64,000 nt of DNA. Origin: Eukaryota sp. GEM-RC1. Taxonomy: Eukaryota. Made by a program: the position numbers and the translations under genes. The DNA is taken from the NCBI GenBank assembly GCA_040285855.1, contig JAUFOQ010000004.1:1984001-2048000 (forward strand), given 5' to 3'. This document shows positions 9,656 through 62,288 of this stretch, piece after piece (position 1 is the first letter of the stretch; each line of letters begins with the position of its first letter). The notes beneath the pieces were generated by a model. That model did no database searches and was not told the origin of the DNA. It saw nothing but the letters and a program-made list of their open reading frames with translations.

Positions 9656-10315
9656 TTAAAAAATGAATCTATTCTTATGTGATGATTGTAATGACTGTTG
9701 TGTTTGACTGTCAATTGAGTTGCCACGTACATCAATCTCAGAAATACATAAATTTACCTCTAAAGCTTCTGCAAATGCAATAGCTCCTTCGTTACCAATT
9801 GAGTTGTCACTTAGATAGATCTCAGAAACATAAGAATTCACCTTTAAAGCATCTGCAAATGCAATAGCACCTTCAGGACCAATTGAGTTGTTACGTATAT
9901 CGATCCTAGAAACTGAAGAATTCAGCTTCAAAGCTTCAGCAATTGCAATAGCGCCTTCAGAACCAATTGAGTTACCACATAGACCGACCGTCAAAACCGA
10001 AGAGTTCACCTTCAAGGCCTCTGCAATTGCTGCAGCGCCTTCAGGACCAATTGAGTTGTCACCCAAAACAATCGTAGAAACAGACGAGTTCTCCTTCAAA
10101 GCCTCTGCAATTGCTGTAGCGCCTTCAGCACCAATTGAGCTGTCACCCATATTGATCAGCGAGACCTCATTTTTGACCATCTGATCATAAACAGTCCGCA
10201 ACTCAGAGCTCAGCTTGCTCCAGTCAATACCAAGTTTCTTCTCTTCAACTTGCTCAAGAAGAGAGGCACTTTCCACAGATTTGATAGATGTAAGAGTTGA
10301 ATCATCTTGAGCCAT
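9656..10315 (-). CDS. RI/NLRC3-type LRR protein, six modules; divergent solo member of the array family
   Basis: ATG-started ORF with QVEEKKLGIDWSKLSSELRTVYDQMVKNEV, 28-aa repeats and an IDSQTQQSL..HKNR cap. Confidence 0.8.
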   Translation of the reverse strand: MAQDDSTLTSIKSVESASLLEQVEEKKLGIDWSKLSSELRTVYDQMVKNEVSLINMGDSSIGAEGATAIAEALKENSSVSTIVLGDNSIGPEGAAAIAEALKVNSSVLTVGLCGNSIGSEGAIAIAEALKLNSSVSRIDIRNNSIGPEGAIAFADALKVNSYVSEIYLSDNSIGNEGAIAFAEALEVNLCISEIDVRGNSIDSQTQQSLQSSHKNRFIF

Positions 10316-16021: not shown

Positions 16022-16189
16022 ATCAGTAATTTTTCAGGCACAATTGTGTATGGTTATTCCCCGAAAACCACCATAAAATTAACCAAAATTTTTTTTCTGT
16101 CATCCCACTTTATTTTCCACCATCATCTATTTAACTTCAAACATCACATCAGACAATTTATAATTTCCGAATTTAATATTTAACAATCT

Positions 16190-17985: not shown

Positions 17986-18747
17986 TCGAACACTTCATTC
18001 AAGAAACAGCTTGAACTGAAGAAGACCAGAATCCAGCATCCTCCTAACGAAAAAGAGTCTTTGATTGACCTTCTCGCCGAATTTAGTGATGTATTTAGTG
18101 ACCTGCCACACCCTGATGGTATCGACTGTGACCCCATGAGGACCCCATTTGCTGCCGAATCCCGCATCGTTAGTCAACCCCGTAGAAACCTAAGCCCCGA
18201 AAAATTAGCTGTCGCCAACAAAACCAAATGATCTGACAAATAAAGGTCTTTTATATCACTAAAACGCATCATATACCTACTATAACAAAGAATTCGATGA
18301 CTTGCTCAAGAAAAACTTCGCTATCCCCAACAAAACCAAATGGTCCTCTCCCATTTGCTTGGTAACCTATGCCGACAAAGCTCCCCGAGTGACTGGCGAT
18401 TTCAGCGGCAAGAATGGTGTTAATGATCTTTCCCTTGCTTTAGATGCTGATTTACAAAATCGTTGATATTCTGCAAGTCTTGTCAAAAGCCAAGTACATA
18501 GCCACTCTTGACCTACCCAAAGTTTTCTGGCAAGTCAAACTCCACCCAGACAACGTGAAGAAAGCCTCTTTGTCCATCCCTGGTCGATCAATCTCATTTA
18601 CCCGTGCTGCTTTTGGACTGAAAAATGTCCCAGCATTCTTTCAAAATTTAATGGTCTGGTTTTTTGTCGACGAAGACATTTTTATTTTTATTGACGATAT
18701 GGTCGTGTGTTCCGAAGATTTCCCCAATCTACTCTCTAAGCTTAGGC
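17986..18747 (+). mobile_element. Ty3/Gypsy reverse transcriptase fragment (pseudogene)
   Basis: EFSDVF, WSSPICLV, ATLDLPKVFWQV, AAFGLKNVPAFFQ and FIDD motifs. Frameshifted, with a ~69-bp insertion near 18222-18290. Confidence 0.85.
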
Positions 18748-19675
18748 TATTAATTATTAATTAAGTATAATATATGTAAAGATGTTGTAAAGAAATTCCA
18801 AGTGAATTAAATTACTTTTTTCACTGAATAGAATCACTTTTGTAAGATGAAATTGATTGAAAAGGTTAAACTATTTGAACCTTTTGCACATGACAGATCA
18901 TTCGTGACGTCATCATAGTAACTCCTCGTAATATTTATTAGTACTGTATTTGTATCAGATACAGAGGACTTCACACTATTTAAAACAATTAAATTATGAT
19001 CAACTTGAGGACGATTTAGAAGAAACCAGACCACAGCTTAGTAACAATATTTTTAACAGTTACTGGACTAAAATCATTGAAAGAGGCACCTCATTTGATT
19101 TAATCAAGCAAACCAGAAACAACTCATGAAAAACAACGAGCTCTTCTTTGATTAACAAAGAGCTCATATATCACGATACCAAGGTCACTATGTGTCATTA
19201 GGGAAAACTGTCCGTTAAACTGTTAAGAAGCTATGTATTACCGTGTTACTGGTGAGGTATGGGTTGATGAAAGAATTCTTGAGGACCAATATCATCCACT
19301 TTAACCACGGCTATCCACCAAAAGAACCCTTTTCAAATCTTCAGAAAATGAGGATCATGAACTAGCTTGTGCTGTACTTGTTGGTCAAAGATAACATCGA
19401 AGTGTTGGACTCAAACGGGGAATTGCTCAACACAAGTATACTTGAGTGGTCAATAGTATAAATTCCGTGAGACCAAGATAGAATTGAAGTGAAGATCAAT
19501 CTTTAAAGATACTGTCAGACGCACAAAGAAGTCAAAAACCAATGAGTGTGGAACTGTTGGAAAAGGGGGATGATGAATGATTCTAGAGAGTTTTTAGAAG
19601 CTTCACACTTTAACAAAAGTAGGATATCATGTCCTGTTGTCCAATCAATAGGAAACCCATCGCCAAGAAATACCA

Positions 19676-20017
19676 AAGAATCCCGTGACAACATTGTATG
19701 ACCACACCTTCTGTAAGGCAAAACTTGAAGAATGACTTCTCCCCCAGGATGGATGTTCTGTCTGTAGAGCCGAAGAGGACAAGTCTAGGATGTGCCCAAA
19801 CTTCAAGTTAAAGGAAGCCCTTGAAGCTTTTGTTGCTGGTTACACTGATTCTATTTGCTTTACTTGCTTTGAGTGTGAAGAAGCTGCGACAAGTTGTTGT
19901 GGTGAATGCGATGCCGATCTATGTAACCAATGCTTAATAACTATACATTGTCTGAAACTCTTCCGATCCCATACACCAACAATACATGCAAGCAGTTCAC
20001 GAACAGTAGTAGTGTAG
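19676..20017 (+). pseudogene. RING / B-box1 pseudogene fragment, paralog of the TRIM-LRR gene
   Basis: KNPVTTLYDHTFCKAKLEE*LLPQDGCSVCRAEEDKSRMCPNFKLKEALE..CFECEEAATSCCGECDADLCNQC..LFRSH. TGA at 19733 replaces Trp. Confidence 0.8.
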
Positions 20018-20292
20018 TGGCTCTACTATCCACTAGTGAATCCACTAGTGGATCTACGTTCTTGAAGAGAATCCAGAAAGGAAAGTCCAGGATTCAAAGG
20101 ACGATATGAAAACAAATGCAGATCAAACGGAAGTGAAGACATCATTCAAGGAAATATTCCGTCAAGATTTCTAGCAAAAGAGATAAGTTGTCAAGATTCT
20201 AGTCAGCTGTCAAGAGCATATAAGTTCGTAGGAGTTGTTCAGATGGTGTCCAAAAATTTCTTCCACATAGTTTGCTCCAACTCGCAAATGGA

Positions 20293-22368
20293 ATGAACAC
20301 TACAGTTACAGAGCTACATCTATGTGGCCAGGGTATTACCACGATGTGTAATCTTACATATGACCATCAATTATCCGATCTTCCCAAGCTTTCTGTTATA
20401 CATTTCTTTGGTAATGAAATCCGCAAACTAGAATGCCTTGATCATCTCCAACATCTTATTGAGCTGAATCTCGGTTCAAATCAAATCAGAAAGCTTAGAC
20501 CAGCTCCTCTTCTAACCTCTCTACGTATATTCGACGTCTCTTGTAATAAGATGGACAACCTCGATGGAATAGAAAACTTCCCCAATCTTCGATCTCTCTT
20601 AATTGCCCATAACCGCATTTCCTCTCTCATTCCTATTGCCTCTTTTCGATTGCTCGAACACCTTGATGCTCGTAACAACAAACTCTCAAAGCTCTCCCAA
20701 CTAAGTCCTCTGGGCCTCCTCCATTCCCTTTCTTCTCTCTCACTTGTTCACTCGTCTGGGAATCCTATCACAGACGATCCTGGTTATAAGACGAAAGTTC
20801 TACAGCTGTGTAATCAGCTTAAAGAACTCGATGGGGTTTCGCTATTGAAAGAACGTGAAGATGACAATTTAACAGTATTAAGAAGAGCTTTATCTAAGAT
20901 CCAGAAAGAAAATTCTAAATTAAGAGCAAAGATTGATGTGTTGAAAACTGAGTTGAGTAGGGCTCACGGTCAGATTCATGTACACCGTCCAGTTGAGGAA
21001 GGAGCTGCAATTTCTGTATTGCGGCGACAAAATGCTGAGAAAGATACAGAAATAGAAAGGGGTTTGACTAAGAATCAGCAACTTTCGGAACAACTTTCTA
21101 TCGAAAAGGAAAAGAGAATCGAAGCAGAATCTCAAATTTCTGAGTTAAATAATCTAAATTCCACAAAAAAATCTGAAAATACTAGAATTTTGAATGAAAA
21201 CAATCAGCTAATTCAGCAAGTTTCACTGCAAAAACAGCGGACAGTTGAAGCTGAAGCTGCTATTTCTCAACTTCAAAAAGAATATTCAGAAAACGATACA
21301 AAAATCTCTACATTGACCACCCAAAATCAACTACTTTCTGAACAACTTTCAATTAAAAAAAAGAAGACAGCCAAAACTGAGTCGTCTCTCCTTCAACTTC
21401 AACAGGAAAATTTTAAAAAGTATCAGCAATTGAACGAATTTTCTAAGGAAATTCAAAAGATGTCTGAATGTCTTTTGCTTGAGCAGTATCGGATAACAGA
21501 GCTTCAATCTAGTTTTGAAGGAGAAAAACGAGAGAATATAGAGTTAAAAAAGGAGCTGAAATCTGTAAAGGCACAGTTGGGCACAAGAAAAACTGAGTTT
21601 TCTAAAATTTATCACCGTTTTGAAAAGCAGAAGTTTGAGTTGGAATCCAAATTTTCTAATATGTCTTTAAAATTGACTTCTTCGCAACAGCAATGTCAGC
21701 AGTTACAAAGTCAATTGTCTTCTCTTAAAGCGCAAAATTCAAATTCTCTTTCTGAATTAAGTGTGGCGCACTCAAATCTGGAATCCCAAAAATCCAAAAT
21801 ATTCGAATTAGAACAACTTTTGAATTATCGTGATTCTGAGATTGAAGTTACTGTAAAAGCCTATGAACACGCTGCTTCTGAAATAGCATCTTTAAAAGAA
21901 TTTATTGAAGTTGAGAATTCCTCTAAAACTGAGATTTCTTCCTTAAATGATTTATTAAAGGATCAGGAATATCAGTACAGAAATGTTCTCGCAGACAATG
22001 CAAGACTTTCTGAAGAAGTCAAGCGATACACGTCATTGTTTCAACGACTTTCTGATAAAAATTCTTCTCTACGAAGGGAAGTTTCTGAACATCAGTCACG
22101 AGTCCATGATTTAGAAAACTCGTTCACTCAAAAGAATATTGAATTAAGAAACAGTGTAAATCAGCTCAAGAGTCAGCTTTCTAATGAAGTTAGTAAGGTA
22201 AATGAATTGGAGAATGAGTTGAAATTCTCGAAACAGCAGTTGGTGGAATCTTTGAAAGCTAACGAAGAATTTTCTAGAGAGAATTCTACTTTATCAGTGA
22301 AAATTGACAAGTTACAACAAGTTGTTCAACATTTACAGTCATTGAATACAGTTTTGACCACGGAATAA
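20293..22368 (+). CDS. SDS22-type LRR + LRRcap + long coiled-coil protein (LRRCC1/centriolin-like, probably centrosomal or ciliary)
   Basis: Repeats such as LIELNLGSNQIRKL and LRSLLIAHNRISSL, LRRcap NPITDDPGYKTKVLQLCNQLKELDG, then about 500 aa of heptads. Intact ORF, first ATG 20293. Confidence 0.85.
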   Translation: MNTTVTELHLCGQGITTMCNLTYDHQLSDLPKLSVIHFFGNEIRKLECLDHLQHLIELNLGSNQIRKLRPAPLLTSLRIFDVSCNKMDNLDGIENFPNLRSLLIAHNRISSLIPIASFRLLEHLDARNNKLSKLSQLSPLGLLHSLSSLSLVHSSGNPITDDPGYKTKVLQLCNQLKELDGVSLLKEREDDNLTVLRRALSKIQKENSKLRAKIDVLKTELSRAHGQIHVHRPVEEGAAISVLRRQNAEKDTEIERGLTKNQQLSEQLSIEKEKRIEAESQISELNNLNSTKKSENTRILNENNQLIQQVSLQKQRTVEAEAAISQLQKEYSENDTKISTLTTQNQLLSEQLSIKKKKTAKTESSLLQLQQENFKKYQQLNEFSKEIQKMSECLLLEQYRITELQSSFEGEKRENIELKKELKSVKAQLGTRKTEFSKIYHRFEKQKFELESKFSNMSLKLTSSQQQCQQLQSQLSSLKAQNSNSLSELSVAHSNLESQKSKIFELEQLLNYRDSEIEVTVKAYEHAASEIASLKEFIEVENSSKTEISSLNDLLKDQEYQYRNVLADNARLSEEVKRYTSLFQRLSDKNSSLRREVSEHQSRVHDLENSFTQKNIELRNSVNQLKSQLSNEVSKVNELENELKFSKQQLVESLKANEEFSRENSTLSVKIDKLQQVVQHLQSLNTVLTTE

Positions 22369-22877: not shown

Positions 22878-23794
22878 TAGTGTTGGCAAATAACGTGATG
22901 CGTTATAATGTGTTGTGACGTGACGCAACGCAATGTGTGATGTAACGCAAATATTTCAGATTACTCAACGTGTGATGAAACGCAAGTATTTTTCTCGTCA
23001 CGTTGCGTCACGTCGTGACGTACTTATCTGTTTTCAATGTATCTTTTTATGCAACCATATTTGTGATGAAGAGATGAGGTATCCATCTGTCATTTGCTGT
23101 TATTCTTTCTATGCCAACGACAACTTAAAATCTGTTTATTTCTGAAACTAAATGTTGTTCTTCAACCATGAACAAAGACATAACTGTTTGAACTGGTGAT
23201 TAACCAAGTACGTTACGTTTTTTTGTCACTACAAGACCAGCTTCTGAGAAAAGTCTTTCATTGGGGATGGAAGTGCATTGAACAGGAAACCGACTCTGAT
23301 TTTGTTTCCATTAAGTCACTATGTCAATTGACTTAACGGTTCCTTCAAATACACACACAACTCATCTTCTTCATGAGTGTCGATGTCTTTCACATCCGAA
23401 TCGTCGGAAATTTTATCACGAATATCCAATGAAGATGCATCAGAGTCTGACATCTGTTCAGCATATGCATGATAAATTTGTTGTACATCCGGAAATACAG
23501 ATTCGGTGTTGAAAGTTCTAGTAGTTTTACGTTTTTTGAGTTTTGGGTTCAATAAACAAAGCAAATAGGCTGTGAAATTGCTCATATGATGTACTAGTAT
23601 GTATTGCCTCACTTTGGAGTACATGATTTCAAATATTTTCTTAAACAACGTATAATATTTTATATGTTTAAAAGAGTTTCACGTACGTCAACGTGACGCG
23701 ACGTGACGCAACGTAAGAGGTGACACGGAAATATTCTACGTTGCGTCTCGTCACGCAACAACTTGTGACGCATCGTGATCATTTGCCAACACTA
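22878..23794 (-). mobile_element. Non-autonomous hAT transposon (917 bp) with dimerisation-domain remnant
   Basis: TIR TAGTGTTGGCAAAT / ATTTGCCAACACTA. Perfect 8-bp TSD CTGTTCAG. GTGAC/CGTCAC subterminal repeats. Minus strand reads DELCVYLKEP..PVQCTSIPNERLFSEAGLVVTKKRNVL. Confidence 0.92.
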
Positions 23795-25044
23795 CTGTTC
23801 AGCCTTTTCAAGATGGCCATTTGAATCATTCAAAATGGACTCTTTGTAGACTTTTGCAAACGGGTCAACTGTGGTAAAATCAACCACAACTTGAGATGAA
23901 TCCAGGAAAGGAGCAATTAGATCACCACGCCGAGAATCAAACACATTTTATTGTTATTATAATGTTTCAGAAGAGGTTTAATTTTGCAACTATAGTTTAA
24001 CATATCTTAAGTGACACTACAAACATTTCCTGTAACTGACAGCAAGTCAAAAGGGGGCTGTAGATCTGATATTCCGGACACAAATAGAATTATTAAGCAA
24101 ATCACCAAATAGCCCTAGTCGAAGACGCATATTTTGCTTCCAAGCATCATTGTTCAAATGTAAACCTGAAGGTCTAGGTTGTTGAGTGATGGAGCTAGAA
24201 CAGATGATGTAAAACAAAAAACCGCCTTTCATTTACATTTACATTTACATTTACAATTAAAAAATATTAACAACGGAGATACTAATACATCCACATCATC
24301 TCAGCTTCATGTCCTAATTCAAAGAGACTGTTTAAAATCGAATCAATGCTTTGACGAGGAACATGTCAACCTTCTTTCCAATCACTTTCATAAAACAAAA
24401 TTCTTTCCATACTATACTGCTTACACTTTGCTGAAAGTGTGAAAATTTTTGTCCCAAAAAGCCATGTAAAGAGCAATAGCAAAATGATGGAAAACAAACG
24501 GATTGTGTCGACGAGAATTCTTTTGATAATTAATTCACTATAGAGATCTGATTTTTTCCTTTCAGCAGTTCCAAGAGCTTACTAATTTTCGTCTAAAATT
24601 TTGTTAATAGAAGATGAGTTACAAGGATCAACTGTAGTAAAGTCCATAATTAGTTCTGGAGGGGACAAACGAGAATCAATCAACTCTCCTCTTCTCTAAT
24701 CTCTCATAAATGAGTTAGACAAAGTTCTAAAAACTGATTCGATTCTCCCATGAACACTATTGGTCTTGAACAATTTTAAACATTGATCACTAAACTGTTG
24801 TAAATGATTGATCATAAATGAATAGACTTATGACAGTTGCCCACATGATTGAAAGAGGCTAAAGAAGAACCACATACACAAGTAGACTTTTGACGGAGAC
24901 CAACAAACATTTCAGCTAACATCAAGCAAATGTTGATAAGCTATTCATGATCTTTTAAGTGGAAACTATATCTTTGAGGATATCGAATTTATTTTTAAAG
25001 TGAAAGAAGTTATCATTATATCCCAGGAATTCATGTTTAGCAAG

Positions 25045-25779
25045 TTAATAACAGACTCTACTCTTGTGTAATGATTCTAATGACTTTTTTGTTTGTCTGT
25101 TGATTGAGTTCCTACATTGAAAGACCACCTTAAGAGACGACTTCACCTTTAAAGCTTCAGCAATTGCAATTGCACCTTCATTACCAATTGAGTTGTGCTC
25201 TAGATTCACACAAGAAAGAGAGGAATTCACCTTTATAGCTTCTGCAATCGCTACAGCGCCTTCAGGACCAATTAAGTTGTAACTTAGACAGATCGTAGAA
25301 ACAGAAGAATTCACCTTTAAAGTTTCAGCAATTGCAACAGCACCTTCATTCCCAATTGAGTTTTTCATTAGATTGATCCTAGAAACAGAAGAATTCACCT
25401 TTAAAGCTTCCGCAATTGCAATAGCACCTTCATTACCAATTGAGTTGGCATGTAGATAGATCCTGGAAACAGACGAATTCACCTTTAAAGCTTCAGCAAT
25501 TGCAATAGCCCCTTGAGAACCAGCTGAGGTGTAACCTAGCTCGATCATATAAACCTCATTTCCCACCATTTGATCATAACAATTCTTCAACTTAGAGCTA
25601 AGCTTACTCCAATCAATAACAAGTTTCTTTTCTTCAACTTGCTGGACAGGAGACACACTTTCAGCAGACTTGATTGGTAAAACAAAGGAATCATCTTGAG
25701 ACCCAACTGAAGCAACACTGGATTCAGAATCCACAGACAGAGAGGTCAAACGACGAGAAGCAGCGGAGTGGACTGACAA
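25045..25779 (-). CDS. LRR cassette 1 (type A, 6 modules, divergent)
   Basis: 28-aa repeats; ORF start is TTG, first in-frame ATG at MVGNEV. Confidence 0.7.
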   Translation of the reverse strand: MSVHSAASRRLTSLSVDSESSVASVGSQDDSFVLPIKSAESVSPVQQVEEKKLVIDWSKLSSKLKNCYDQMVGNEVYMIELGYTSAGSQGAIAIAEALKVNSSVSRIYLHANSIGNEGAIAIAEALKVNSSVSRINLMKNSIGNEGAVAIAETLKVNSSVSTICLSYNLIGPEGAVAIAEAIKVNSSLSCVNLEHNSIGNEGAIAIAEALKVKSSLKVVFQCRNSINRQTKKSLESLHKSRVCY

Positions 25780-26762
25780 AAGTTCTTCATTTAGGGAGGA
25801 GATGATGGAGGACTGGTGTTGAAGAAGGGTGGAAGTAGTTGTAATGAATTGTTCGTTAATCTGTGGTTGGAAGATACAGTTCGAGTAATAAGGTTATGAG
25901 GTTTTCCTGACTTTAAATCTCACGTTTTTCAACATGCTATCTACATTTCCGATTTTTGTTCTCCAGCTGGTTTACAGAGTACAGATTCATATTCATTACA
26001 GTGTAGCTTAGTGAATGTTAGATAAGTTACTCTATTAAAGATGTCCAAAGACCGGTTCTGTGTGTTGTGACAAATACAAAACAAGATGTCACATTTAATG
26101 AAAGATCATTAAAATAAAATCTAACGAACAACCTAATTCTAACCAGTAGTTAGCACCAAGAGATATATCACCAAAACGTTGTTATTGTGGTGTGTTTGTG
26201 ATATACCACCACCATTTGATTTCCTCCTATTGACTGCACCATTCAATACCACTATTTTGGCAATTCTTTGTCTATAACTAACAGGTTGGTTGCGCACATA
26301 AAAATGAATACATATAAAAACTCATGTAGAATTAGCATTCAAAATAATCAAAACATCATTCAGTTACAGTGAATCTTTCAAAAGCTTTTTCTTGAGAGAA
26401 AATACAATTATTTTGATTATGAGTCAGTATGTTGATGATTCCAAAAGTGTAAACAATTGATATTAAGTGGCATTATTTCATATACTAATTGATATCTGGT
26501 GTTGTTGAAAACAATAGCAAATGTACTACTAAATATGACGTGTCTTATTCGCCAGAGTAGTAGTATTGTATCTGAACATCTGCTAAGCAGCTTTGGTATT
26601 GGTGTATCTGTGTGTCACTTTGGAGTTGTATTTGAGATAATGATTGTTCTGACCTAAACGATATTTGAAGTATGAAATACATTCACCTGATGATGGGGCT
26701 TTTGATAAGAAATCATTTATGATTTTTGAGCAATGTGATCTTTATGTCTAAGGAAAATATCT

Positions 26763-27287
26763 TTAGAAACGCATTCTATTTTTGTGCAGTGGTTTTAATG
26801 ACTGTTGTGTTTGACTGTTGATTGAGTTGTTACCTAGATAGATCTCAGTAACAGAAGAATTCACCTTTAAAGCTTCAGCAATTGCAATAGCGCCTTCATT
26901 ACCAATTGAGTTGTTCTCTAGATAGATCTGAGAAACAGAAGAATTCACCTTTAAAGCTTCAGCAATTGCAATAGCGCCTTCATTACCAATTGAGTTGCTA
27001 CGTAGATAGATCACAGTAACAGACGAATTCACCTTTAAAGCTTGAGCAATTGCAATATCGCCTCCAGGACCAATTGAGTTGGTACCTAGATCGATCACAG
27101 TAACAGAATAATTCACCTTTAAAGCTTCAGCAATTGCAATAGCGCCCTCATTACCAATTGAGTTGTTCTCTAGATAGATCTCAGTAACAGAAGAATTCAC
27201 CTTTAAAGCTTCAGCAATTGCAATAGCGCCTTCAGGACCAATTGAGTTGTTACATAGATTGATCGTAGACAAATCATTTCCCACCAT
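26763..27287 (-). CDS. LRR cassette 2 (type B, 6 modules)
   Basis: ATG MVGNDL, 28-aa repeats, KPLHKNRMRF cap. Confidence 0.7.
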   Translation of the reverse strand: MVGNDLSTINLCNNSIGPEGAIAIAEALKVNSSVTEIYLENNSIGNEGAIAIAEALKVNYSVTVIDLGTNSIGPGGDIAIAQALKVNSSVTVIYLRSNSIGNEGAIAIAEALKVNSSVSQIYLENNSIGNEGAIAIAEALKVNSSVTEIYLGNNSINSQTQQSLKPLHKNRMRF

Positions 27288-29828: not shown

Positions 29829-29990
29829 TCTCCTCCTTAAATGAAGAGCTTTTGTCAGTCCACTCCGATGCTTCTCGTCGTTTGACCTCTCTGTCTGTGG
29901 ATTCTGAATCCAGTGTTGCTTCAGTTGGGTCTCCAGATTGCCCTATTTTACAACGCTAACCTTTGGTTGGAAGATACAGTTCGCGTAATA

Positions 29991-30620
29991 ACCATGAACA
30001 AAGACATAACTGTTTGAACTGGTGATTAACCAAGTACGTTACGTTTTTTTGTCACTACAAGACCAGCTTCTGAGAAAAGTCTTTCATTGGGGATGGAAGT
30101 GCATTGAACAGGAAACCGACTCTGATTTTGTTTCCATTAAGTCACTATGTCAATTGACTTAACGGTTCCTTCAAATACACACACAACTCATCTTCTTCAT
30201 GAGTGTCGATGTCTTTCACATCCGAATCGTCGGAAATTTTATCACGAATATCCAATGAAGATGCATCAGAGTCTGACATCTGTTCAGCATATGCATGATA
30301 AATTTGTTGTACATCCGGAAATACAGATTCGGTGTTGAAAGTTCTAGTAGTTTTACGTTTTTTGAGTTTTGGGTTCAATAAACAAAGCAAATAGGCTGTG
30401 AAATTGCTCATATGATGTACTAGTATGTATTGCCTCACTTTGGAGTACATGATTTCAAATATTTTCTTAAACAACGTATAATATTTTATATGTTTAAAAG
30501 AGTTTCACGTACGTCAACGTGACGCGACGTGACGCAACGTAAGAGGTGACACGGAAATATTCTACGTTGCGTCTCGTCACGCAACAACTTGTGACGCATC
30601 GTGATCATTTGCCAACACTA
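29991..30620 (-). mobile_element. Truncated duplicate of the hAT element (one TIR only)
   Basis: Matches 23165-23794; part of the segmental duplication. Confidence 0.88.
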
Positions 30621-31870
30621 CTGTTCAGCCTTTTCAAGATGGCCATTTGAATCATTCAAAATGGACTCTTTGTAGACTTTTGCAAACGGGTCAACTGTGG
30701 TAAAATCAACCACAACTTGAGATGAATCCAGGAAAGGAGCAATTAGATCACCACGCCGAGAATCAAACACATTTTATTGTTATTATAATGTTTCAGAAGA
30801 GGTTTAATTTTGCAACTATAGTTTAACATATCTTAAGTGACACTACAAACATTTCCTGTAACTGACAGCAAGTCAAAAGGGGGCTGTAGATCTGATATTC
30901 CGGACACAAATAGAATTATTAAGCAAATCACCAAATAGCCCTAGTCGAAGACGCATATTTTGCTTCCAAGCATCATTGTTCAAATGTAAACCTAAAGGTC
31001 TAGGTTGTTGAGTGATGTAGCTAGAACAGATGATGTAAAACAAAAAACCGCCTTTCATTTACATTTACATTTACATTTACAATTAAAAAATATTAACAAC
31101 GGAGATACTAATACATCCACATCATCTCAGCTTCATGTCCCAATTCAAAGAGACTGTTTAAAATCGAATCAATGCTTTGACGAGGAACATGTCAACCTTC
31201 TTTCCAATCACTTTCATAAAACAAAATTCTTTCCATACTATACTGCTTACACTTTGCTGAAAGTGTGAAAATTTTTGTCCCAAAAAGCCATGTAAAGAGC
31301 AATAGCAAAATGATGGAAAACAAACGGATTGTGTCGACGAGAATTCTTTTGATAATTAATTCACTATAAAGATCTGATTTTTTCCTTTCAGCAGTTCCAA
31401 GAGCTTACTAATTTTCGTCTAAAATTTTGTTAATAGAAGATGAGTTACAATGATCAACTGTAGTAAAGTCCATAATTAGTTCTGGAGGGGACAAACGAGA
31501 ATCAATCAACTCTCCTCTTCTCTAATCTCTCATAAATGAGTTAGACAAAGTTCTAAAAACTGATTCGATTCTCCCATGAACACTATTGGTCTTGAACAAT
31601 TTTAAACATTGATCACTAAACTGTTGTAAATGATTGATCATAAATGAATAGACTTATGACAGTTGCCCACATGATTGAAAGAGGCTAAAGAAGAACCACA
31701 TACACAAGTAGACTTTTGACGGAGACCAACAAACATTTCAGCTAACATCAAGCAAATGTTGATAAGCTATTCATGATCTTTTAAGTGGAAACTATATCTT
31801 TGAGGATATCGAATTTATTTTTAAAGTGAAAGAAGTTATCATTATATCCCAGGAATTCATGTTTAGCAAG

Positions 31871-32605
31871 TTAATAACAGACTCTACTCTTGTGTAATGA
31901 TTCTAATGACTTTTTTGTTTGTCTGTTGATTGAGTTCCTACATTGAAAGACCACCTTAAGAGACGACTTCACCTTTAAAGCTTCAGCAATTGCAATTGCA
32001 CCTTCATTACCAATTGAGTTGTGCTCTAGATTCACACAAGAAAGAGAGGAATTCACCTTTATAGCTTCTGCAATCGCTACAGCGCCTTCAGGACCAATTA
32101 AGTTGTAACTTAGACAGATCGTAGAAACAGAAGAATTCACCTTTAAAGTTTCAGCAATTGCAACAGCACCTTCATTCCCAATTGAGTTTTTCATTAGATT
32201 GATCCTAAAAACAGAAGAATTCACCTTTAAAGCTTCCGCAATTGCAATAGCACCTTCATTACCAATTGAGTTGGCATGTAGATAGATCCTGGAAACAGAC
32301 GAATTCACCTTTAAAGCTTCAGCAATTGCAATAGCCCCTTGAGAACCAGCTGAGGTGTAACCTAGCTCGATCATATAAACCTCATTTCCCACCATTTGAT
32401 CATAACAATTCTTCAACTTAGAGCTAAGCTTACTCCAATCAATAACAAGTTTCTTTTCTTCAACTTGCTGGACAGGAGACACACTTTCAGCAGACTTGAT
32501 TGGTAAAACAAAGGAATCATCTTGAGACCCAACTGAAGCAACACTGGATTCAGAATCCACAGACAGAGAGGTCAAACGACGAGAAGCAGCGGAGTGGACT
32601 GACAA
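31871..32605 (-). CDS. LRR cassette 5 (type A, duplicate of cassette 1)
   Basis: One amino-acid difference (S to F) from 25045-25779. Confidence 0.7.
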   Translation of the reverse strand: MSVHSAASRRLTSLSVDSESSVASVGSQDDSFVLPIKSAESVSPVQQVEEKKLVIDWSKLSSKLKNCYDQMVGNEVYMIELGYTSAGSQGAIAIAEALKVNSSVSRIYLHANSIGNEGAIAIAEALKVNSSVFRINLMKNSIGNEGAVAIAETLKVNSSVSTICLSYNLIGPEGAVAIAEAIKVNSSLSCVNLEHNSIGNEGAIAIAEALKVKSSLKVVFQCRNSINRQTKKSLESLHKSRVCY

Positions 32606-33584
32606 AAGTTCTTCATTTAGGGAGGAGATGATGGAGGACTGGTGTTGAAGAAGGGTGGAAGTAGTTGTAATGAATTGTTCGTTAATCTTTGGTTGGAAAA
32701 TACAGTTTGAGTATTAAGGTTATGAGGTTTTTCGGACCTTAAAATCTCACGTTTTTCAACAGGCTTTCTACATTTACGATTTTCGTTTTCCAGCTGGTTT
32801 ACAGAATACATATTCATACTCATTACAGTGTAGCTTAGTGAGTGCTAGATAAGTTACTCTATTAAAGATGTACAAAGATCGGTTCTGTGTGTTGAGACAA
32901 ATACAAAACAAGATGTGACCTTTAATTAAAGACCATTCACAATCTACGAACAACCAAATTCTAACCAGTTGTTAGCACCAAGTGATATATCACCAAAACG
33001 TTGTTATTGTGGTGTGTTTGTGATATACCACCACCATTTGATTTCCTCCTATTGACTGCACCATTCAATACCACTATTTTGGCAATTCTTTGTCTATAAC
33101 TAACAGGTTGGTTGCGCACATAAAAATGAATACATATAAAAACTCATGTAGAATTAGCATTCAAAATAATCAAAACATCATTCAGTTACAGTGAATCTTT
33201 CAAAAGCTTTTTCTTGAGAGAAAATACAATTATTTTGATTATGAGTCAGTATGTTGATGATTCCAAAAGTGTAAACAATTGATATTAAGTTGCATTCTTT
33301 CATATACTAATTGATATCTGGTGTTGTTGAAAACTATAGCAAATGTACTACTAAATATAACGTGTCTTATTCGCCAGAGTAGTAGTATTGTATCTGAACA
33401 TCTACTAAGCAGCTTTGGTATTGGTGTATCTGTGTGTCACTTTGGAGTTGTATTTGAGATAATGATTGTTCTGACCTAAACGATATTTGAAGTATGTAAT
33501 ACATTCACCTGATGATGGGGCTTTTGATAAGAAATCATTTATGATTATTGAACAATGTGATCTTTATGTCTAAGGAAAATATCT

Positions 33585-34025
33585 TTAGAAACGCATTCTA
33601 TTTTTGTGCAGTGGTTTTAATGACTGTTGTGTTTGACTGTCGATTGAGTTGTTACCTAGATAGATCTCAGTAACAGAAGAATTCACCTTTAAAGCTTCAG
33701 CAATTGCAATAGCGCCTTCATTACCAATTGAGTTGTTACCTAGATCGATCACAGTAACAGACGAATTCACCTTTAAAGCTTGAGCAATTGCAATATCGCC
33801 TCCAGGACCAATTCAGTTGGTACCTAGATCGATCACAGTAACAGAATAATTCACCTTTAAAGCTTCAGCAATTGCAATAGCGCCCTCATTACCAATTGAG
33901 TTGTTCTCTAGATAGATCTCAGTAACAGAAGAATTCACCTTTAAAGCTTCAGCAATTGCAATAGCGCCTTCAGGACCAATTGAGTTGTTACATAGATTGA
34001 TCGTAGACAAATCATTTCCCACCAT
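33585..34025 (-). pseudogene. LRR cassette 6 (type B, 5 modules, internal stop)
   Basis: TCA to TGA at 33813-33815 splits the ORF. Confidence 0.7.
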
Positions 34026-42061: not shown

Positions 42062-43804
42062 TTAGAAATAAATTCTATTCTTGTGTAGTGATTTTAATGA
42101 CTGTTGTGTTTGACTGTCGATTGAGTTGTTCTCTAGATAGATCACAGTAACAGACGAATTCAACTTTAAAGCTTCAGCAATTGCAATAGCGCCTTCATTA
42201 CCAATTGAGTTGTTACCTAGATTGATCACAGTAACAGACGAATTCACCTTTAAAGCTTCAGCAATTGCAATAGCGCATTCATTACCAATTGAGTTGTTAC
42301 CTAGATTGATCACAGTAACAGACGAATTCACCTTTAAAGCTTCAGCAATTGCAATAGCGCCTTCAGGACCAGTTGAGTTGTTATGTAGATAAATCTGAGA
42401 AACAGACGAATTCACCTTTAAAGCTTCAGCAATTGCAATAACGCCTTCATTACCAATTGAGTTGTTATATAGATCGATCACAGTAACAGACGAATTCACC
42501 TTTAAAGCTTCAGCAATTGCAATAGCGCCTTCAGGACCAATTGAGTTGTTATGTAGATAAATCTGAGAAACAGACGAATTCACCTTTAAAGCTTCAGCAA
42601 TTGCAATAGCGCATTCATTACCAATTGAGTTGTTACCTAGATTGATCACAGTAACAGACGAATTCACCTTTAAAGCTTCAGCAATTGCAATAGCGCCTTC
42701 AGGACCAGTTGAGTTGTTATGTAGATAAATCTGAGAAACAGACGAATTCACCTTTAAAGCTTCAGCAATTGCAATAACGCCTTCATTACCAATTGAGTTG
42801 TTATATAGATCGATCACAGTAACAGACGAATTCACCTTTAAAGCTTCAGCAATTGCAATAGCGCCTTCAGGACCAATTGAGTTGTTATGTAGATAAATCT
42901 GAGAAACAGACGAATTCACCTTTAAAGCTTCAGCAATTGCAATAGCGCATTCATTACCAATTGAGTTGTTACCTAGATTGATCACAGTAACAGACGAATT
43001 CACCTTTAAAGCTTCAGCAATTGCAATAGCGCCTTCAGGACCAGTTGAGTTGTTATGTAGATAAATCTGAGAAACAGACGAATTCACCTTTAAAGCTTCA
43101 GCAATTGCAATAACGCCTTCATTACCAATTGAGTTGTTATATAGATCGATCACAGTAACAGACGAATTCACCTTTAAAGCTTCAGCAATTGCAATAGCGC
43201 CTTCAGGACCAATTGAGTTGTTATGTAGATAAATCTGAGAAACAGACGAATTCACCTTTAAAGCTTCAGCAATTGCAATAGCGCCTTCAGGACCAATTGA
43301 GTTGTTATGTAGATCGATCCTACTAACAGACGAATTCACCTTTAAAGCTTCAGCAATTGCAATAGCGCCTTCAGGACCAATTGAGTTGTTATGTAGATAA
43401 ATCTGAGAAACAGACGAATTCACCTTTAAAGCTTCAGCAATTGCAATAACGCCTTCATTACCAATTGAGTTGTTATATAGATAGATATCAGAAACAGACG
43501 AATTCAGCTTTAAAGCTTCTGCAATTGCAATAGCGCCTTCAGGACCAATTGAGTTGTTATCTAGACCGATCGCAGAAACCTCATTTCTCACCATCTGATC
43601 ATAACAGTTCTTCAGCTCAGAGCTCAGCTTTCTCCAATCAATAACAAGTTTCTTCTCTTCAACTTGCTGGACAGGAGACACACTTTCAGCAGACTTGATT
43701 GGTAAAACAAAGGAATCATCTTGAGACCCAACTGAAGCAACACTGGATTCAGAATCCACAGACAGAGAGGTTAAACGACGGGAAGCAGCAGAGTAGACTG
43801 ACAA
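42062..43804 (-). CDS. LRR cassette 12 (type A, 18 modules)
   Basis: 580-aa ORF: 17 full 28-aa repeats plus terminal cap module. Confidence 0.8.
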   Translation of the reverse strand: MSVYSAASRRLTSLSVDSESSVASVGSQDDSFVLPIKSAESVSPVQQVEEKKLVIDWRKLSSELKNCYDQMVRNEVSAIGLDNNSIGPEGAIAIAEALKLNSSVSDIYLYNNSIGNEGVIAIAEALKVNSSVSQIYLHNNSIGPEGAIAIAEALKVNSSVSRIDLHNNSIGPEGAIAIAEALKVNSSVSQIYLHNNSIGPEGAIAIAEALKVNSSVTVIDLYNNSIGNEGVIAIAEALKVNSSVSQIYLHNNSTGPEGAIAIAEALKVNSSVTVINLGNNSIGNECAIAIAEALKVNSSVSQIYLHNNSIGPEGAIAIAEALKVNSSVTVIDLYNNSIGNEGVIAIAEALKVNSSVSQIYLHNNSTGPEGAIAIAEALKVNSSVTVINLGNNSIGNECAIAIAEALKVNSSVSQIYLHNNSIGPEGAIAIAEALKVNSSVTVIDLYNNSIGNEGVIAIAEALKVNSSVSQIYLHNNSTGPEGAIAIAEALKVNSSVTVINLGNNSIGNECAIAIAEALKVNSSVTVINLGNNSIGNEGAIAIAEALKLNSSVTVIYLENNSIDSQTQQSLKSLHKNRIYF

Positions 43805-44898
43805 AAGTTCTTCATTTAGGGAGGAGATGATGGAGGACTGGTGTTGAAGAAGGGTGGAAGTAGTTGTAATGAATTGTTCGTTAATCTGTGGTTGGAAAAT
43901 ACAGTTTGAGTATTAAGGTTATGAGGTTTTTCGGACCTTAAAATCTCACGTTTTTCAACAGGCTTTCTACATTTACGATTTTCGTTTTCCAGCTGGTTTA
44001 CAGAATACATATTCATACTCATTACAGTGTAGCTTAGTGAGTGCTAGATAAGTTACTCTATTAAAGATGTACAAAGATCGGTTCTGTGTGTTGAGACAAA
44101 TACAAAACAAGATGTGACCTTTAATTAAAGAACATTCACAATCTACGAACAACCAAATTCTAACCAGTTGTTAGCACCAAGTGATATATCTAAATACTTT
44201 TTTCCAGTTTTCATTGTGGAACTTCTGAACAAATTCTAAACACAAAGTTTTTAACAATACAAATTCTCAATTTCGTCAACTGTAAACTTCCCCATAAAGA
44301 AACCGTGGAAGCAAAACTTTGATATTGTGGTGTGTTCGTGTTATAACTCCGCCATTTGATTGTCTCCTGCTGACTGCAAACTATTTTGGCAATTCTTTGT
44401 CTATAACTAACAGGTTTATTATGCACATGGCAATGAGTACATATAAAAACACATGTAAAATTATCATTGAAAACAAACAAAGCATCATTTAGTTACATTG
44501 AATCTTTCAAAAACTTGTTCTTGAGCGAAAATACAATCGTGTTAATTATGAGTCAAAATGTTGATGATTCCAAGAGTGTAAACATTCGAAATAATGTAGC
44601 ATTATTTCAGAAACTAATTACTATCTGGTGTTTTTGACAACAATAGTAAATGAACTACTGAACACGATGTGTCTATTCGCCAGAGTAGTGTTGTATCTGA
44701 AAATCTGCTAAGCAGTTTTGGTATTGGTTTCTTTGTGGGTCACTTTGGAGTTGTATTTGAGATAATGATTGCTCTGACCTAAACGATATTTGAAGTGTAA
44801 TACATTCATTCTTTGATGGCTGATGATGATGGGGCTTTTGATAAGAAATCATTTATGATTTTTGAGCAATGTGTTCTTTATGTCTAAGGAAAATATCT

Positions 44899-45423
44899 TT
44901 AGAAACGCATTCTATTTTTGTGCAGTGGTTTTAATGACTGTTGTGTTTGACTGTTGATTGAGTTGTTACATAGATAGATCTCAGTAACAGAAGAATTCAC
45001 CTTTAAAGCTTCAGCAATTGCAATAGCGCCTTCATTACCAATTGAGTTGTTCTCTAGATAGATCTGAGAAACAGAAGAATTCACCTTTAAAGCTTCAGCA
45101 ATTGCAATAGCGCCTTCATTACCAATTGAGTTGTTACCTAGATCGATCACAGTAACAGACGAATTCACCTTTAAAGCTTGAGCAATTGCAATAGCGCCTT
45201 CATTACCAATTGAGTTGTTACCTAGATCGATCACAGTAACAGACGAATGCACCTTTAAAGCTTGAGCAATTGCAATATCGCCTCCAGGACCAATTGAGTT
45301 GGTACCTAGATAGATCTCAGAAACAGAAGAATTCACCTTTAAAGCTTCAGCAATTGCAATAGCGCCTTCAGGACCAATTGAGTTGTTACATAGATTGATC
45401 GTAGACAAATCATTTCCCACCAT
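44899..45423 (-). CDS. LRR cassette 13 (type B, 6 modules)
   Basis: 174-aa ORF. Confidence 0.7.
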   Translation of the reverse strand: MVGNDLSTINLCNNSIGPEGAIAIAEALKVNSSVSEIYLGTNSIGPGGDIAIAQALKVHSSVTVIDLGNNSIGNEGAIAIAQALKVNSSVTVIDLGNNSIGNEGAIAIAEALKVNSSVSQIYLENNSIGNEGAIAIAEALKVNSSVTEIYLCNNSINSQTQQSLKPLHKNRMRF

Positions 45424-46562
45424 TCTCCTCCTTAAATGAAGAGCTTTTGTCAGTCCACTCCGATGCTTCTCGTCGTTTGACCTCTCTGTCTGTGGATTCT
45501 GAATCCAGTGTTGCTTCAGTTGGGTCTCCAGATTGCCCTATTTTACAACGCTAACCTTTGGTTGGAAGATACAGTTCGAGTAATAAGGCTATGAGCTTTA
45601 CTTAAATCTCACGTCTTTCAACTGGCTATCTACATTTGCGATTTTTGTTTTCCAGCTGGTTTACAGAGTACATATTCCTTACAGTGTGGCTTAGAGAATG
45701 TTAGATTATTTACTCTATTAAAGATGTCCAAAGACCGGTCCTGTGTGTTGAGACAAATACAAAACAAGATGTCATATTTATTTAAAGATCATCAAAACAA
45801 AATGTAACTAACAACTAATTCTAACCAGTCGTCAGCACCAAGTGATATATCTACATATATTTTTTTTCCAGTTTAAATTGAGGAGTTTCCGAACAAATTC
45901 TGAACAGACAGTTTTAAACAATACAATCTCTTAAGTTAAATAACTAATGCTTCCCTATAGAGAAACCGTGGAAGCATAACATTGTTATTGTGGTGTGTTT
46001 GTGATATACCACCACCACCAGTTGATTTCCTCCTATTGACTGCACCATTCAAGAAAACTATTTTGGCAATTCTTTGTTTATAACTGACAGGTTTTTTCTG
46101 CACATAGCAATGATTACATATAAAAACACATGTAAACTTACCAAAGAAAATAATCAAAGCATCATTCAGTTACACTGAATCTTTCAAAAGCTTTTCCTTG
46201 AGAGAAAATGTAATCGTTTTGATTATGAGTCAGTATGTTGATTCCAAAAGTGTAAACAATTGATATTAAGTTGCATTCTTTCATATACTAATTGATATCT
46301 GGTGTTGTTGAAAACTATAGCAAATGTACTACTAAATATGACGTGTCTTATTCGCCAGAGTAGTAGTATTGTATCTGAACATCTAAGCAGCTTTGGTATT
46401 GGTGTATCTGTGTGTCACTTTGGAGTTGTATTTGAGATAATGATTGTTCTGACCTAAACGATATTTGAAGTATGTAATACATTCACCTGATGATGGGGCT
46501 TTTGATAAGAAATCATTTATGATTATTGAACAATGTGATCTTTATGTCTAAGGAAAATATCT

Positions 46563-57806: not shown

Positions 57807-58628
57807 TTAGAAATAAATTCTATTCTTGTGTAGTGATTTTAATGACTGTTGTGTTTGACTGTCGATTGAGTTGTTACCTAGATTGATCACAGTAACAGAC
57901 GAATTCAACTTTAAAGCTTCAGCAATTGCAATAGCGCCTCCAGGACCAATTGAGTTGTTAGATAGATCGATCCTAGTAACAGACGAATTCAACTTTAAAG
58001 CTTCAGCAATTGCAATAGCGCCTCCAGGACCAATTGAGTTGTTAGATAGATCGATCCTAGTAACAGACGAATTCAACTTTAAAGCTTCAGCAATTGCAAT
58101 AGCGCCTTCAGGACCAATTGAGTTGTTAGATAGATTGATCCTAGTAACAGAAACAGACGAATTCACCTTTAAAGCTTCAGCAATTGCAATAGCGCCTTCA
58201 GGACCAATTGAGTTGTTATGTAGATAGATATCAGAAACAGACGAATTCAGCTTTAAAGCTTCAGCAATTGCAATAGCGCCTTCAGGACCAATTGAGTTGT
58301 TATGTAGATAGATCCTGCTAACAGACGAATTCACCTTTAAAGCTTCAGCAATTGCAATAGCGCCTTCAGGACCAATTGAGTTGTTTCTTAGATCGATCGT
58401 AGAAGCCTCATTTCTCACCATCTGATCATAACAATTCTTCAACTTAGAGCTCAGCTTTCTCCAATCAATAACAAGTTTCTTCTCTTCAACTTGCTGGACA
58501 GGAGATACATGTTTAACCGATTTGATTGGTAAAACAGTGTCATCTTGGGAGGTAGAAGAAGCAACACTGGATTCAGAATCCACAGACAGAGAGGTTAAAC
58601 GACGGGAAGCAGCAGAGTAGACTGACAA
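57807..58628 (-). CDS. LRR cassette 22 (type A, 7 modules)
   Basis: 273-aa ORF; one module has a 2-aa insertion. Confidence 0.75.
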   Translation of the reverse strand: MSVYSAASRRLTSLSVDSESSVASSTSQDDTVLPIKSVKHVSPVQQVEEKKLVIDWRKLSSKLKNCYDQMVRNEASTIDLRNNSIGPEGAIAIAEALKVNSSVSRIYLHNNSIGPEGAIAIAEALKLNSSVSDIYLHNNSIGPEGAIAIAEALKVNSSVSVTRINLSNNSIGPEGAIAIAEALKLNSSVTRIDLSNNSIGPGGAIAIAEALKLNSSVTRIDLSNNSIGPGGAIAIAEALKLNSSVTVINLGNNSIDSQTQQSLKSLHKNRIYF

Positions 58629-59720: not shown

Positions 59721-60542
59721 TTAGAAATAAATTCTATTCTTGTGTAGTGATTTTAATGACTGTTGTGTTTGACTGTCGATTGAGTTGTTACCTAGATTGA
59801 TCACAGTAACAGACGAATTCAACTTTAAAGCTTCAGCAATTGCAATAGCGCCTCCAGGACCAATTGAGTTGTTAGATAGATCGATCCTAGTAACAGACGA
59901 ATTCAACTTTAAAGCTTCAGCAATTGCAATAGCGCCTCCAGGACCAATTGAGTTGTTAGATAGATCGATCCTAGTAACAGACGAATTCAACTTTAAAGCT
60001 TCAGCAATTGCAATAGCGCCTTCAGGACCAATTGAGTTGTTAGATAGATTGATCCTAGTAACAGAAACAGACGAATTCACCTTTAAAGCTTCAGCAATTG
60101 CAATAGCGCCTTCAGGACCAATTGAGTTGTTATGTAGATAGATATCAGAAACAGACGAATTCAGCTTTAAAGCTTCAGCAATTGCAATAGCGCCTTCAGG
60201 ACCAATTGAGTTGTTATGTAGATAGATCCTGCTAACAGACGAATTCACCTTTAAAGCTTCAGCAATTGCAATAGCGCCTTCAGGACCAATTGAGTTGTTT
60301 CTTAGATCGATCGTAGAAGCCTCATTTCTCACCATCTGATCATAACAATTCTTCAACTTAGAGCTCAGCTTTCTCCAATCAATAACAAGTTTCTTCTCTT
60401 CAACTTGCTGGACAGGAGATACATGTTTAACCGATTTGATTGGTAAAACAGTGTCATCTTGGGAGGTAGAAGAAGCAACACTGGATTCAGAATCCACAGA
60501 CAGAGAGGTTAAACGACGGGAAGCAGCAGAGTAGACTGACAA
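59721..60542 (-). CDS. LRR cassette 23 (type A, 7 modules, same protein as 22)
   Basis: 273-aa ORF at a 1914-bp period. Confidence 0.75.
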   Translation of the reverse strand: MSVYSAASRRLTSLSVDSESSVASSTSQDDTVLPIKSVKHVSPVQQVEEKKLVIDWRKLSSKLKNCYDQMVRNEASTIDLRNNSIGPEGAIAIAEALKVNSSVSRIYLHNNSIGPEGAIAIAEALKLNSSVSDIYLHNNSIGPEGAIAIAEALKVNSSVSVTRINLSNNSIGPEGAIAIAEALKLNSSVTRIDLSNNSIGPGGAIAIAEALKLNSSVTRIDLSNNSIGPGGAIAIAEALKLNSSVTVINLGNNSIDSQTQQSLKSLHKNRIYF

Positions 60543-61634: not shown

Positions 61635-62288
61635 TTAGAAATAAATTCTATTCTTGTGTAGTGATTTTAATGACTGTTGTGTTTGACTGTCGATTGAGTT
61701 GTTACCTAGATCGATCCTAGTAACAGACGAATTCAACTTTAAAGCTTCAGCAATTGCAATAGCGCCTTCAGGACCAATTGAGTTGTTAGATAGATTGATC
61801 CTAGTAACAGAAACAGACGAATTCACCTTTAAAGCTTCAGCAATTGCAATAGCGCCTTCAGGACCAATTGAGTTGTTATGTAGATAGATATCAGAAACAG
61901 ACGAATTCAGCTTTAAAGCTTCAGCAATTGCAATAGCGCCTTCAGGACCAATTGAGTTGTTATGTAGATAGATCCTGCTAACAGACGAATTCACCTTTAA
62001 AGCTTCAGCAATTGCAATAGCGCCTTCAGGACCAATTGAGTTGTTTCTTAGATCGATCGTAGAAGCCTCATTTCTCACCATCTGATCATAACAATTCTTC
62101 AACTTAGAGCTCAGCTTTCTCCAATCAATAACAAGTTTCTTCTCTTCAACTTGCTGGACAGGAGATACATGTTTAACCGATTTGATTGGTAAAACAGTGT
62201 CATCTTGGGAGGTAGAAGAAGCAACACTGGATTCAGAATCCACAGACAGAGAGGTTAAACGACGGGAAGCAGCAGAGTAGACTGACAA
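61635..62288 (-). CDS. LRR cassette 24 (type A, 5 modules)
   Basis: 217-aa ORF; cassette 22 minus two modules. Confidence 0.72.
   Translation of the reverse strand: MSVYSAASRRLTSLSVDSESSVASSTSQDDTVLPIKSVKHVSPVQQVEEKKLVIDWRKLSSKLKNCYDQMVRNEASTIDLRNNSIGPEGAIAIAEALKVNSSVSRIYLHNNSIGPEGAIAIAEALKLNSSVSDIYLHNNSIGPEGAIAIAEALKVNSSVSVTRINLSNNSIGPEGAIAIAEALKLNSSVTRIDLGNNSIDSQTQQSLKSLHKNRIYF

Follow-up and report, generated by a model that had tools for sequence, protein, structure and literature searches.

Lamprey VLRs are built from LRR cassettes with a hypervariable concave face located near an LRR gene; their assembly is somatic and deaminase-linked, and it fills an incomplete germline gene. In contrast, the related gene at the locus described here is complete, and no deaminase bias was observed. 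Among fungi, the NWD/het WD40 repeats of Podospora were reportedly the subject of a study by Paoletti et al. in 2007. According to the accessible text of PMC1805685, the NWD repeats undergo concerted evolution, positive selection acts on four codons of their surface, and pseudogene loci retain intact repeats by exchange with active ones. As far as that text goes, our locus shares with them near-identical repeats evolving in concert within and between loci, and selection at a few codons of the interaction surface. The Podospora proteins are, however, WD40 proteins of the HET-NACHT type from a fungus, whereas here LRRs follow an RBCC head in a metamonad. Furthermore, the non-full-length copies found here are 3'-end duplicates that have a junction in common and lie together in a single tandem array, and there is no RIP-like bias, in contrast to Podospora NWD. 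Since no NACHT/STAND NTPase domain was found in Pfam scans or protein matches, the locus works like the NWD system but is not a member of it.

Other described systems show further resemblances. The Ectocarpus ROCO LRR genes share module shuffling, positive selection on the concave face, many pseudogenes and a proposed immune role, but each of their repeats has its own exon and the proteins carry a GTPase domain, whereas here the modules are contiguous in one frame and associated with a TRIM-like head (available text of PMC3341825, in which lamprey VLRs are also mentioned). Borrelia vls also has tandem partial copies whose dN/dS exceeds 1, alongside a full-length relative; it encodes a bacterial surface antigen with demonstrated one-way conversion into one expression site, whereas our array is known from its sequence (PMC3828179, as accessible). 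For their part, teleost finTRIMs and TRIM5alpha use B30.2 as the recognition domain, in place of the RI-type LRR found here, and neither a headless array nor repeat shuffling appears in the finTRIM abstract (PMC2657112). Ectocarpus ROCO LRRs, vls and finTRIMs each match part of the picture. Homogenised repeats that bear a hypervariable concave face are a familiar pattern, and the finding is not new in kind. Two features do appear to be undescribed in the literature searched. One is the combination, in a metamonad, of a variable LRR with a TRIM-like head of RING, B-box and coiled coil; the other is an extensive array of headless copies having alleles in common with one intact gene.

Skoliomonas sp. 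GEM-RC is a free-living anaerobic metamonad of soda lakes whose genome is 48% repetitive (PMC11316075, accessible text). That paper does not use the word "leucine" anywhere in its main text (0 occurrences); the supplements could list such families. No paper on skoliomonad LRR or TRIM genes was found in a mostly open-access literature, nor were RBCC-LRR proteins by title or start of abstract. The window, that is, the whole 64-kb stretch analysed, is AT-rich eukaryotic DNA, probably of this organism, to judge from the 100% identical protein P0001, which is labelled Eukaryota sp. GEM-RC1.

The focal LRR frame (42062-43594, minus strand) comprises Met-Val-Arg, 17 full 28-aa repeats of the RI/NOD2 type, a capping repeat and a stop. 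Counting the cap with the 17 full repeats, this makes 18 modules of 84 bp, of which only 9 are distinct: 12 belong to three 336-bp blocks, each of four modules, that are identical to one another (42242-43249, minus strand; 0 mismatches) and represent a recent internal expansion. Preceding the frame is a coiled-coil tail plus linker (43595-43902, minus strand), open and lacking a Met, that differs from the intact protein P0003 by 2 residues over 102 aligned columns. Homology to the intact gene starts at a junction motif (43890-43902, minus strand) present in 24 of 25 units, the 25th being cut by the window edge. Beyond it lies a spacer of ∼1.0 kb (43903-44910, minus strand), part of which was 68% identical over 265 nt by blastn to the 3' flank of a TRIM-like gene at 657-2145 (plus strand). 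The latter is a divergent RING-B-box-B-box-coiled-coil-LRR paralog with six LRR modules (Pfam RING, zf-B_box twice, LRR_6), and its 3' flank (2140-2601, plus strand; blastn) matched the array spacers at 68 to 71% identity. The shared junction and the likeness of the spacer to this flank indicate that each unit corresponds to the 3' half of an RBCC-LRR gene plus its flank.

Twenty-five such headless units form a tandem array (25045-64000, minus strand) that runs past the end of the window, each laid out as spacer, coiled-coil tail, 2 to 18 modules and cap. Eleven units were of type A, with the linker, while in the 14 of type B the linker was deleted and partly inverted; an inverted 110-bp linker piece (for example at 45424-45533, plus strand; blastn 92.7% in reverse orientation) was present in 14/14 type-B units. 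No credible RING or B-box was detected in the array between 25 and 64 kb (tblastn, E up to 10), and the units lack the RING/B-box head of the TRIM (RBCC) arrangement. They are instead partial copies without the 5' end, related to a full-length gene, as silent cassettes are. An in-frame Met-Val-Arg, with its Met three codons before the first repeat, was kept in 25/25 units, and the type-A linkers were open for 108 to 111 codons in 9 of the 10 units fully in view. Twelve units had a single repeat plus cap, 11 carried a helix proline, and one contained an in-frame TGA (module 33765-33848, minus strand; read from the sequence). P0121 is an array unit, and its public gene model uses a two-codon first exon. 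From the sequence, expression through an upstream frame of 40 codons, linked to the unit across an intron of 17 nt, or use of the units as alternative last exons, may also be considered. Two structural details were recorded besides: a 4-kb segmental duplication (23164-27180 and 29990-34002, 97.8%), by which the array end, a divergent unit and outside flank were copied into the array, and, in three units that are nearly identical, 6 extra bp (Ser-Val) between modules (58071-58160, 59985-60074 and 61731-61820).

To describe where the repeats vary, the window was scanned at the nucleotide level, yielding 122 LRR modules of 84 bp in 27 groups, all counts resting on one assembly. The main counts were made on 100 modules (47 distinct) from 23 recent array units. 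The remaining 22 (18 distinct), from the divergent units 25560 and 32386 and two outlying paralogs, were set apart; the cap repeats of both divergent units scored under the scan threshold. The codons tested were chosen in advance as the x positions of LxxLxLxxN (codons 4, 5, 7, 9 and 10).

The 47 distinct modules carried 32 strand types. Over the 100 array modules, amino-acid entropy reached 0.98, 2.72, 1.59, 2.86 and 1.10 bits at codons 4, 5, 7, 9 and 10, respectively, with 2, 8, 4, 10 and 4 residues seen, whereas the interleaved I6, L8 and N11 had an entropy of 0 and a constant residue. Extra alleles per site were 1.8 and 2.0 at positions 1 and 2 of the x codons, compared with 0.30 to 0.43 at scaffold sites. 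Both the contrast drawn in the initial annotation between a variable strand and a near-invariant scaffold and its placing of most changes at codon positions 1 and 2 were therefore borne out, and the variable codons that it listed were correct. The variation is concentrated in the strand but not confined to xxIxLxx, as had been claimed. While codons 5 and 9 showed pN values of 0.58 and 0.61, codon 15 (P/N/S) reached 0.48, above codons 4, 7 and 10, and codons 27 (pN 0.21) and 1, 18, 16 and 23 (pN 0.10 to 0.13) varied as well. Two other subfamilies (15 and 17 distinct protein modules) likewise vary at the x positions and codon 15. Of the nine strands attributed to the cassettes, six are found within 42062-43594, whereas TEIYLEN, SGIYLRS and TRIDLSN occur only in other units. 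The reported conservation of the third base is real at codons 5 (G in 43/47 distinct modules), 7 (T in 47/47), 9 (T in 42/47) and 10 (C in 47/47). It is nothing special, though, since scaffold third bases are equally constant: third positions were polymorphic in 3 of 5 x codons and 9 of 23 scaffold codons (Fisher p=0.62).

In pairwise comparisons, the x codons had a pN of 0.370 and a pS of 0.056; the corresponding scaffold values were 0.053 and 0.060. The x-codon pN was thus 6.3 times the all-site pS (codon bootstrap 2.9 to 15.4), while scaffold pN/pS was 0.88. The strand sites had been expected to show a dN/dS at or below 1 if selection were not involved, and the value found was well above it, in counts that are tree-free and assume no single genealogy. 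In agreement with this, a minimum-step count per codon gave 26 nonsynonymous steps on 11.8 x sites versus 11 synonymous steps on 21.1 sites (p=2e-5), the synonymous counts being small, and the interval 42062-43594 alone gave 15 versus 4 (p=2e-4). A codon model fitted to 35 modules rejected omega=1 for the x partition (lnL -202.2 versus -210.9; 2 x delta lnL = 17.5) and retained it for the scaffold (lnL -310.9 versus -311.2; 2 x delta lnL = 0.5); the tree-based omega at x codons reached its bound (50), inflated by recombination, and is used as support only. In the 22 modules set apart, pN(x)/pS(scaffold) was 1.6 and the scaffold ratio 0.45. Positive selection therefore acts at a few surface codons, as judged from pN/pS and the step counts.

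These figures bear directly on the idea that the variation comes from a junk tandem array decaying neutrally, or is noise of the assembly, which we regard as very improbable. The scaffold is indeed near-neutral, the assembly was made from Nanopore data with Illumina correction (accessible text of PMC11316075), and several genes of the family are frameshifted. Neither decay nor noise, however, can pile changes into positions 1 and 2 of five preset codons while sparing those between them (p=2e-5), and individual alleles turn up repeatedly, both across many units and in other genes. For the pattern at the x sites, this reading is refuted.

The other process proposed in the initial annotation was a targeted mutational one, and the preservation of the third base gives it some appeal: the variable codons match NNG, NNT and NNC, are derivable from AAG, AAT and AAC, and so recall the targets of DGRs, which mutate template adenines. 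A DGR would target synonymous adenines too, but those at CTA8, TCA12, GAA16, GCA20, GAA23 and TTA25 were kept at 236 of 238 module-sites (129 of 130 at fourfold sites), even though CTA8 sits between two of the most variable codons; a DGR-like mutator thus fails. No all-A template module was present among the 122 window modules, nor was an intact DGR reverse transcriptase found in the window, the sole reverse transcriptase being a 106-aa RVT_1 fragment at 18444-18764. The substitution spectrum was checked, as had been suggested, for adenine- or cytosine-specific bias, and neither was seen. All 27 edges between minimal alleles were single-base changes, 18 of them transversions and 9 transitions (kappa 1.2 to 1.4), so that a deaminase signature is absent; C/T accounted for 2 and A/G for 7, with no excess among the 27 of C:G to T:A transitions of the AID/APOBEC or RIP type. 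The kept third base follows from dN far exceeding dS on a low synonymous background, and no special process is needed. That the strand variation is the work of a targeted mutator, be it a cytosine deaminase or adenine mutagenesis of the DGR type, is hardly credible, and within the window it has already been largely refuted. We infer that the excess of amino-acid-changing differences at the x codons reflects diversifying selection rather than a mutator.

Recombination was evident within the strand itself. Among 36 non-cap modules, all four gametes were found in 154 of 456 pairs of alleles from different codons, including 27% of the pairs within 6 nt, and r2 dropped with distance (permutation p=0.004). 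Recurrent mutation may add some of the four-gamete pairs; multi-base alleles still combine freely, codon-5 GTG and AGG each occurring with AAT, GAT and TAT at codon 7. Codon alleles inside the strand are thus reshuffled by recombination. Exchange also seems to cross the two unit types. Whereas type-A and type-B spacers were 14.4% apart and differed by ∼1% within type (18 full-length spacers), fourfold sites of the LRR scaffold were 6.1% apart between types and ∼4% within, and one identical whole module and three strand haplotypes were common to both. The greater divergence of the spacers suggests LRR exchange across unit types, but the inverted linker piece is also ∼7% apart between types, so the contrast in homogenisation is not unique to the LRRs. 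Concerted evolution was present both within and between loci, the latter at the protein level only.

An AlphaFold2 model of frame 42062-43594 (pLDDT 94.3, pTM 0.86) contains 18 strands spaced 28 residues apart, which start at codon 5 in 18/18 repeats, with helices at about codons 14 to 27. Codons 5 and 7 fall within the strand, codon 9 just after it and codon 15 at the helix start. The best match of the LRR was NOD2 (5irl/5irm; sequence E 1.7e-34), and a model of P0003 superposed on it with an rmsd of 1.3 to 1.8 Å over 163 to 183 columns. When aligned to 5irl with an offset of 190, W911 corresponded to codon 5, R857, G885, S913 and C941 to codon 7, and W887 and V915 to codon 9. These NOD2 residues form a pocket on the concave surface (PMC4906405, accessible text). 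The repeats are therefore 28-residue strand-helix repeats of the RI/NOD2 type with a variable concave face. As anticipated when structural mapping of the variable sites was proposed, codons 5, 7 and 9 lie at the concave sheet or the turn that follows it, and are predicted to belong to the binding face, their exposure following from the 5irl alignment and the known LRR pattern. The claim of strong diversifying selection on the concave face accordingly holds on the pN/pS of ∼6, the strand register and the NOD2 pocket alignment taken together. NOD2 shares with the array the 28-residue spacing and the alignment of its pocket residues to codons 5, 7 and 9; it differs in having a NACHT domain and a conserved pocket, whereas the array LRR has no NACHT and a hypervariable face.

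The closest intact relative of the array, P0003 (GEMRC1_008804), is a complete RBCC-LRR protein of 512 aa. Pfam recognised RING and zf-B_box, the model showed long helices at 164-232 and 244-281 (its N-terminal part being of low confidence), and the protein matched the TIF1-beta RBCC; RING, B-boxes and coiled coil thus occur in TRIM order. The records of P0001, P0003 and P0121 each give a contig of 2,818,101 bases. The P0003 linker is 2 residues from that of the focal unit, 5 to 12 from eight other type-A linkers and 25 to 59 from those of four other paralogs; each of its residues is found in some unit, while no unit matches throughout. Of its six strands, three match array strands exactly and all are built of array residues, and its six modules are 1 to 3 residues from array modules, the comparison being at the protein level only. 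None of ten other proteins checked contained an exact array strand. Since a single crossover explains the linker, its mosaicism indicates exchange rather than flow from donor to recipient, and the likeness of P0003 to the array is, as far as the protein sequences tell, a matter of recent exchange or common descent. From its domain content, P0003 would be a cytosolic E3 ligase, acting as a dimer, whose LRR face senses ligands.

The family includes at least three further full-length paralogs (P0002, P0124 and P0128). The gene model of P0128, on another contig, comprises an intact gene followed by two restarts at the same VFKPK point; a second array of this kind is hinted at, though the restarts may be a prediction artefact. 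Within the window, frame 832-2142 of the paralog at 657-2145 had P0001 as its best match, 100% identical, the equality holding over the LRR frame. This paralog changes frame at a G6 run (863-868) between the RING and the first B-box, which may be real, slippage or an assembly error; the public model P0001 skips the run by a short intron, removing part of the B-box. Changes of frame also occur in P0125 to P0127 and P0129, in their case close to a shared lysine run that follows the second B-box. An older headless or short paralog with a linker tail and six modules lies at 9656-10351 (minus strand; module scan), and a decayed RING plus B-box remnant with stops and no LRR after it at 19664-19972 (plus strand; tblastn). 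Gene order could not be taken from locus tags and was rejected, since P0001 and P0121 are 62 kb apart in the window yet 190 tags apart.

A search of representative sequences with P0003 returned mostly LRR-only matches, and a metagenome scan gave 83 pattern matches, 0 of them confirmed. A word-index search with residues 1-240 found 5 proteins, all from the same organism; this index covers close relatives of 281 to 896 residues, and absence elsewhere is not implied. At other loci, this LRR type is joined to BTB, to a kinase or to an unnamed N-terminal domain (P0010, P0040, P0053, P0020 and P0078); judging from these fusions, the organism may have a wider modular repertoire of LRR receptors. Window positions 4733-5524 correspond to a fragment of the kind with the unnamed domain. 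P0014 carries the same RBCC head with a different, non-LRR C-terminus, that is, domain swapping behind one head.

Elsewhere in the window, an element at 8600-9611 has 18-nt inverted repeats (94% complementary) at its bounds and subterminal repeats of 30 bp next to each of them, and resembles a non-autonomous DNA transposon. The RVT_1 fragment and a SWIM zinc-finger fragment (16164-16601) are probably transposon debris. A 714-codon frame (20224-22368) encodes SDS22-type LRRs (LRR_4/LRR_9), of a class that differs from that of the array, followed by a long predicted coiled coil.

Taken as a whole, the locus is in our view likely to be the product of ordinary point mutation, diversifying selection and module recombination, with the headless copies exchanging repeats with the intact TRIM-like gene as a reservoir. 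One tandem 3'-end duplication, to which the shared junction points, followed by unequal crossing-over, would have generated the 25 units, with point mutations then falling on any of about a hundred copies of the module. Crossing-over and gene conversion over short tracts would keep the scaffold uniform and shuffle the strands. Exchange between P0003 and the array, suggested by the array alleles of P0003, could run in either direction. Selection would act on the intact TRIM-like sensor, whose LRR face, to judge from its domains, might recognise fast-changing foreign or self ligands, and the headless copies would store and recombine the selected repeats. The reservoir role, the immune function and selection in the intact gene are all parts of the explanation that we infer. 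Two observations weigh against it: paralogs on other contigs, for which no array is shown, vary at the same positions, so the pattern needs no archive, and the Met kept before the first repeat in every unit makes LRR-only proteins possible.

A one-way silent-cassette system is a stronger form of this explanation. Here, an unexpressed donor bank, as in vls or VLRs, would convert one expressed TRIM-like locus at a high rate in clonal populations. The headless units do share one junction, the near-identical intact gene is made of array alleles, the nonsynonymous excess occurs in units unable to encode the full protein, and P0128 with its two restarts could be a parallel; moreover, dN/dS above 1 is recorded in unexpressed vls cassettes (Graves et al., PMC3828179, accessible text). 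We nevertheless consider such a dedicated system rather unlikely. Besides P0003 there are the other full-length paralogs, the restarts of P0128 are possibly gene-prediction artefacts, and the array is messy (deletions, an inversion, 1 to 18 repeats), as passive unequal crossing-over leaves it.

The same Met-Val-Arg, the open type-A linkers and the good fold of the focal frame in the AlphaFold2 model would fit units expressed as LRR-only or linker-LRR proteins under direct selection, serving as decoys or adaptors. Judged from sequence features, this is unlikely to be the primary account: 12 of the 25 units would yield one-repeat products of ∼62 aa, 11 units have the helix proline and one the stop, scaffold pN/pS is not below 1, and the public model of P0121 required its two-codon first exon. 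Expressed LRR-only products could, even so, coexist with the reservoir explanation that we prefer.

If P0003 is a sensor-ligase, it would represent cell-autonomous recognition in the style of TRIM5 in a deep-branching anaerobic protist. The observed x alleles allow 2,560 residue combinations; if an expressed TRIM-like E3 ligase were to have its sensing domain converted by a silent bank of headless LRRs, which we hold to be possible but doubtful, thousands of binding faces per repeat could arise in a clonal population. Were that silent-bank reading true, the protist would have a counterpart of lamprey VLRs and Borrelia vls that works inside the cell, needs no lymphocytes and serves recognition instead of evasion. 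Since the organism is cultured, silent receptor archives in unicellular eukaryotes would be directly testable.
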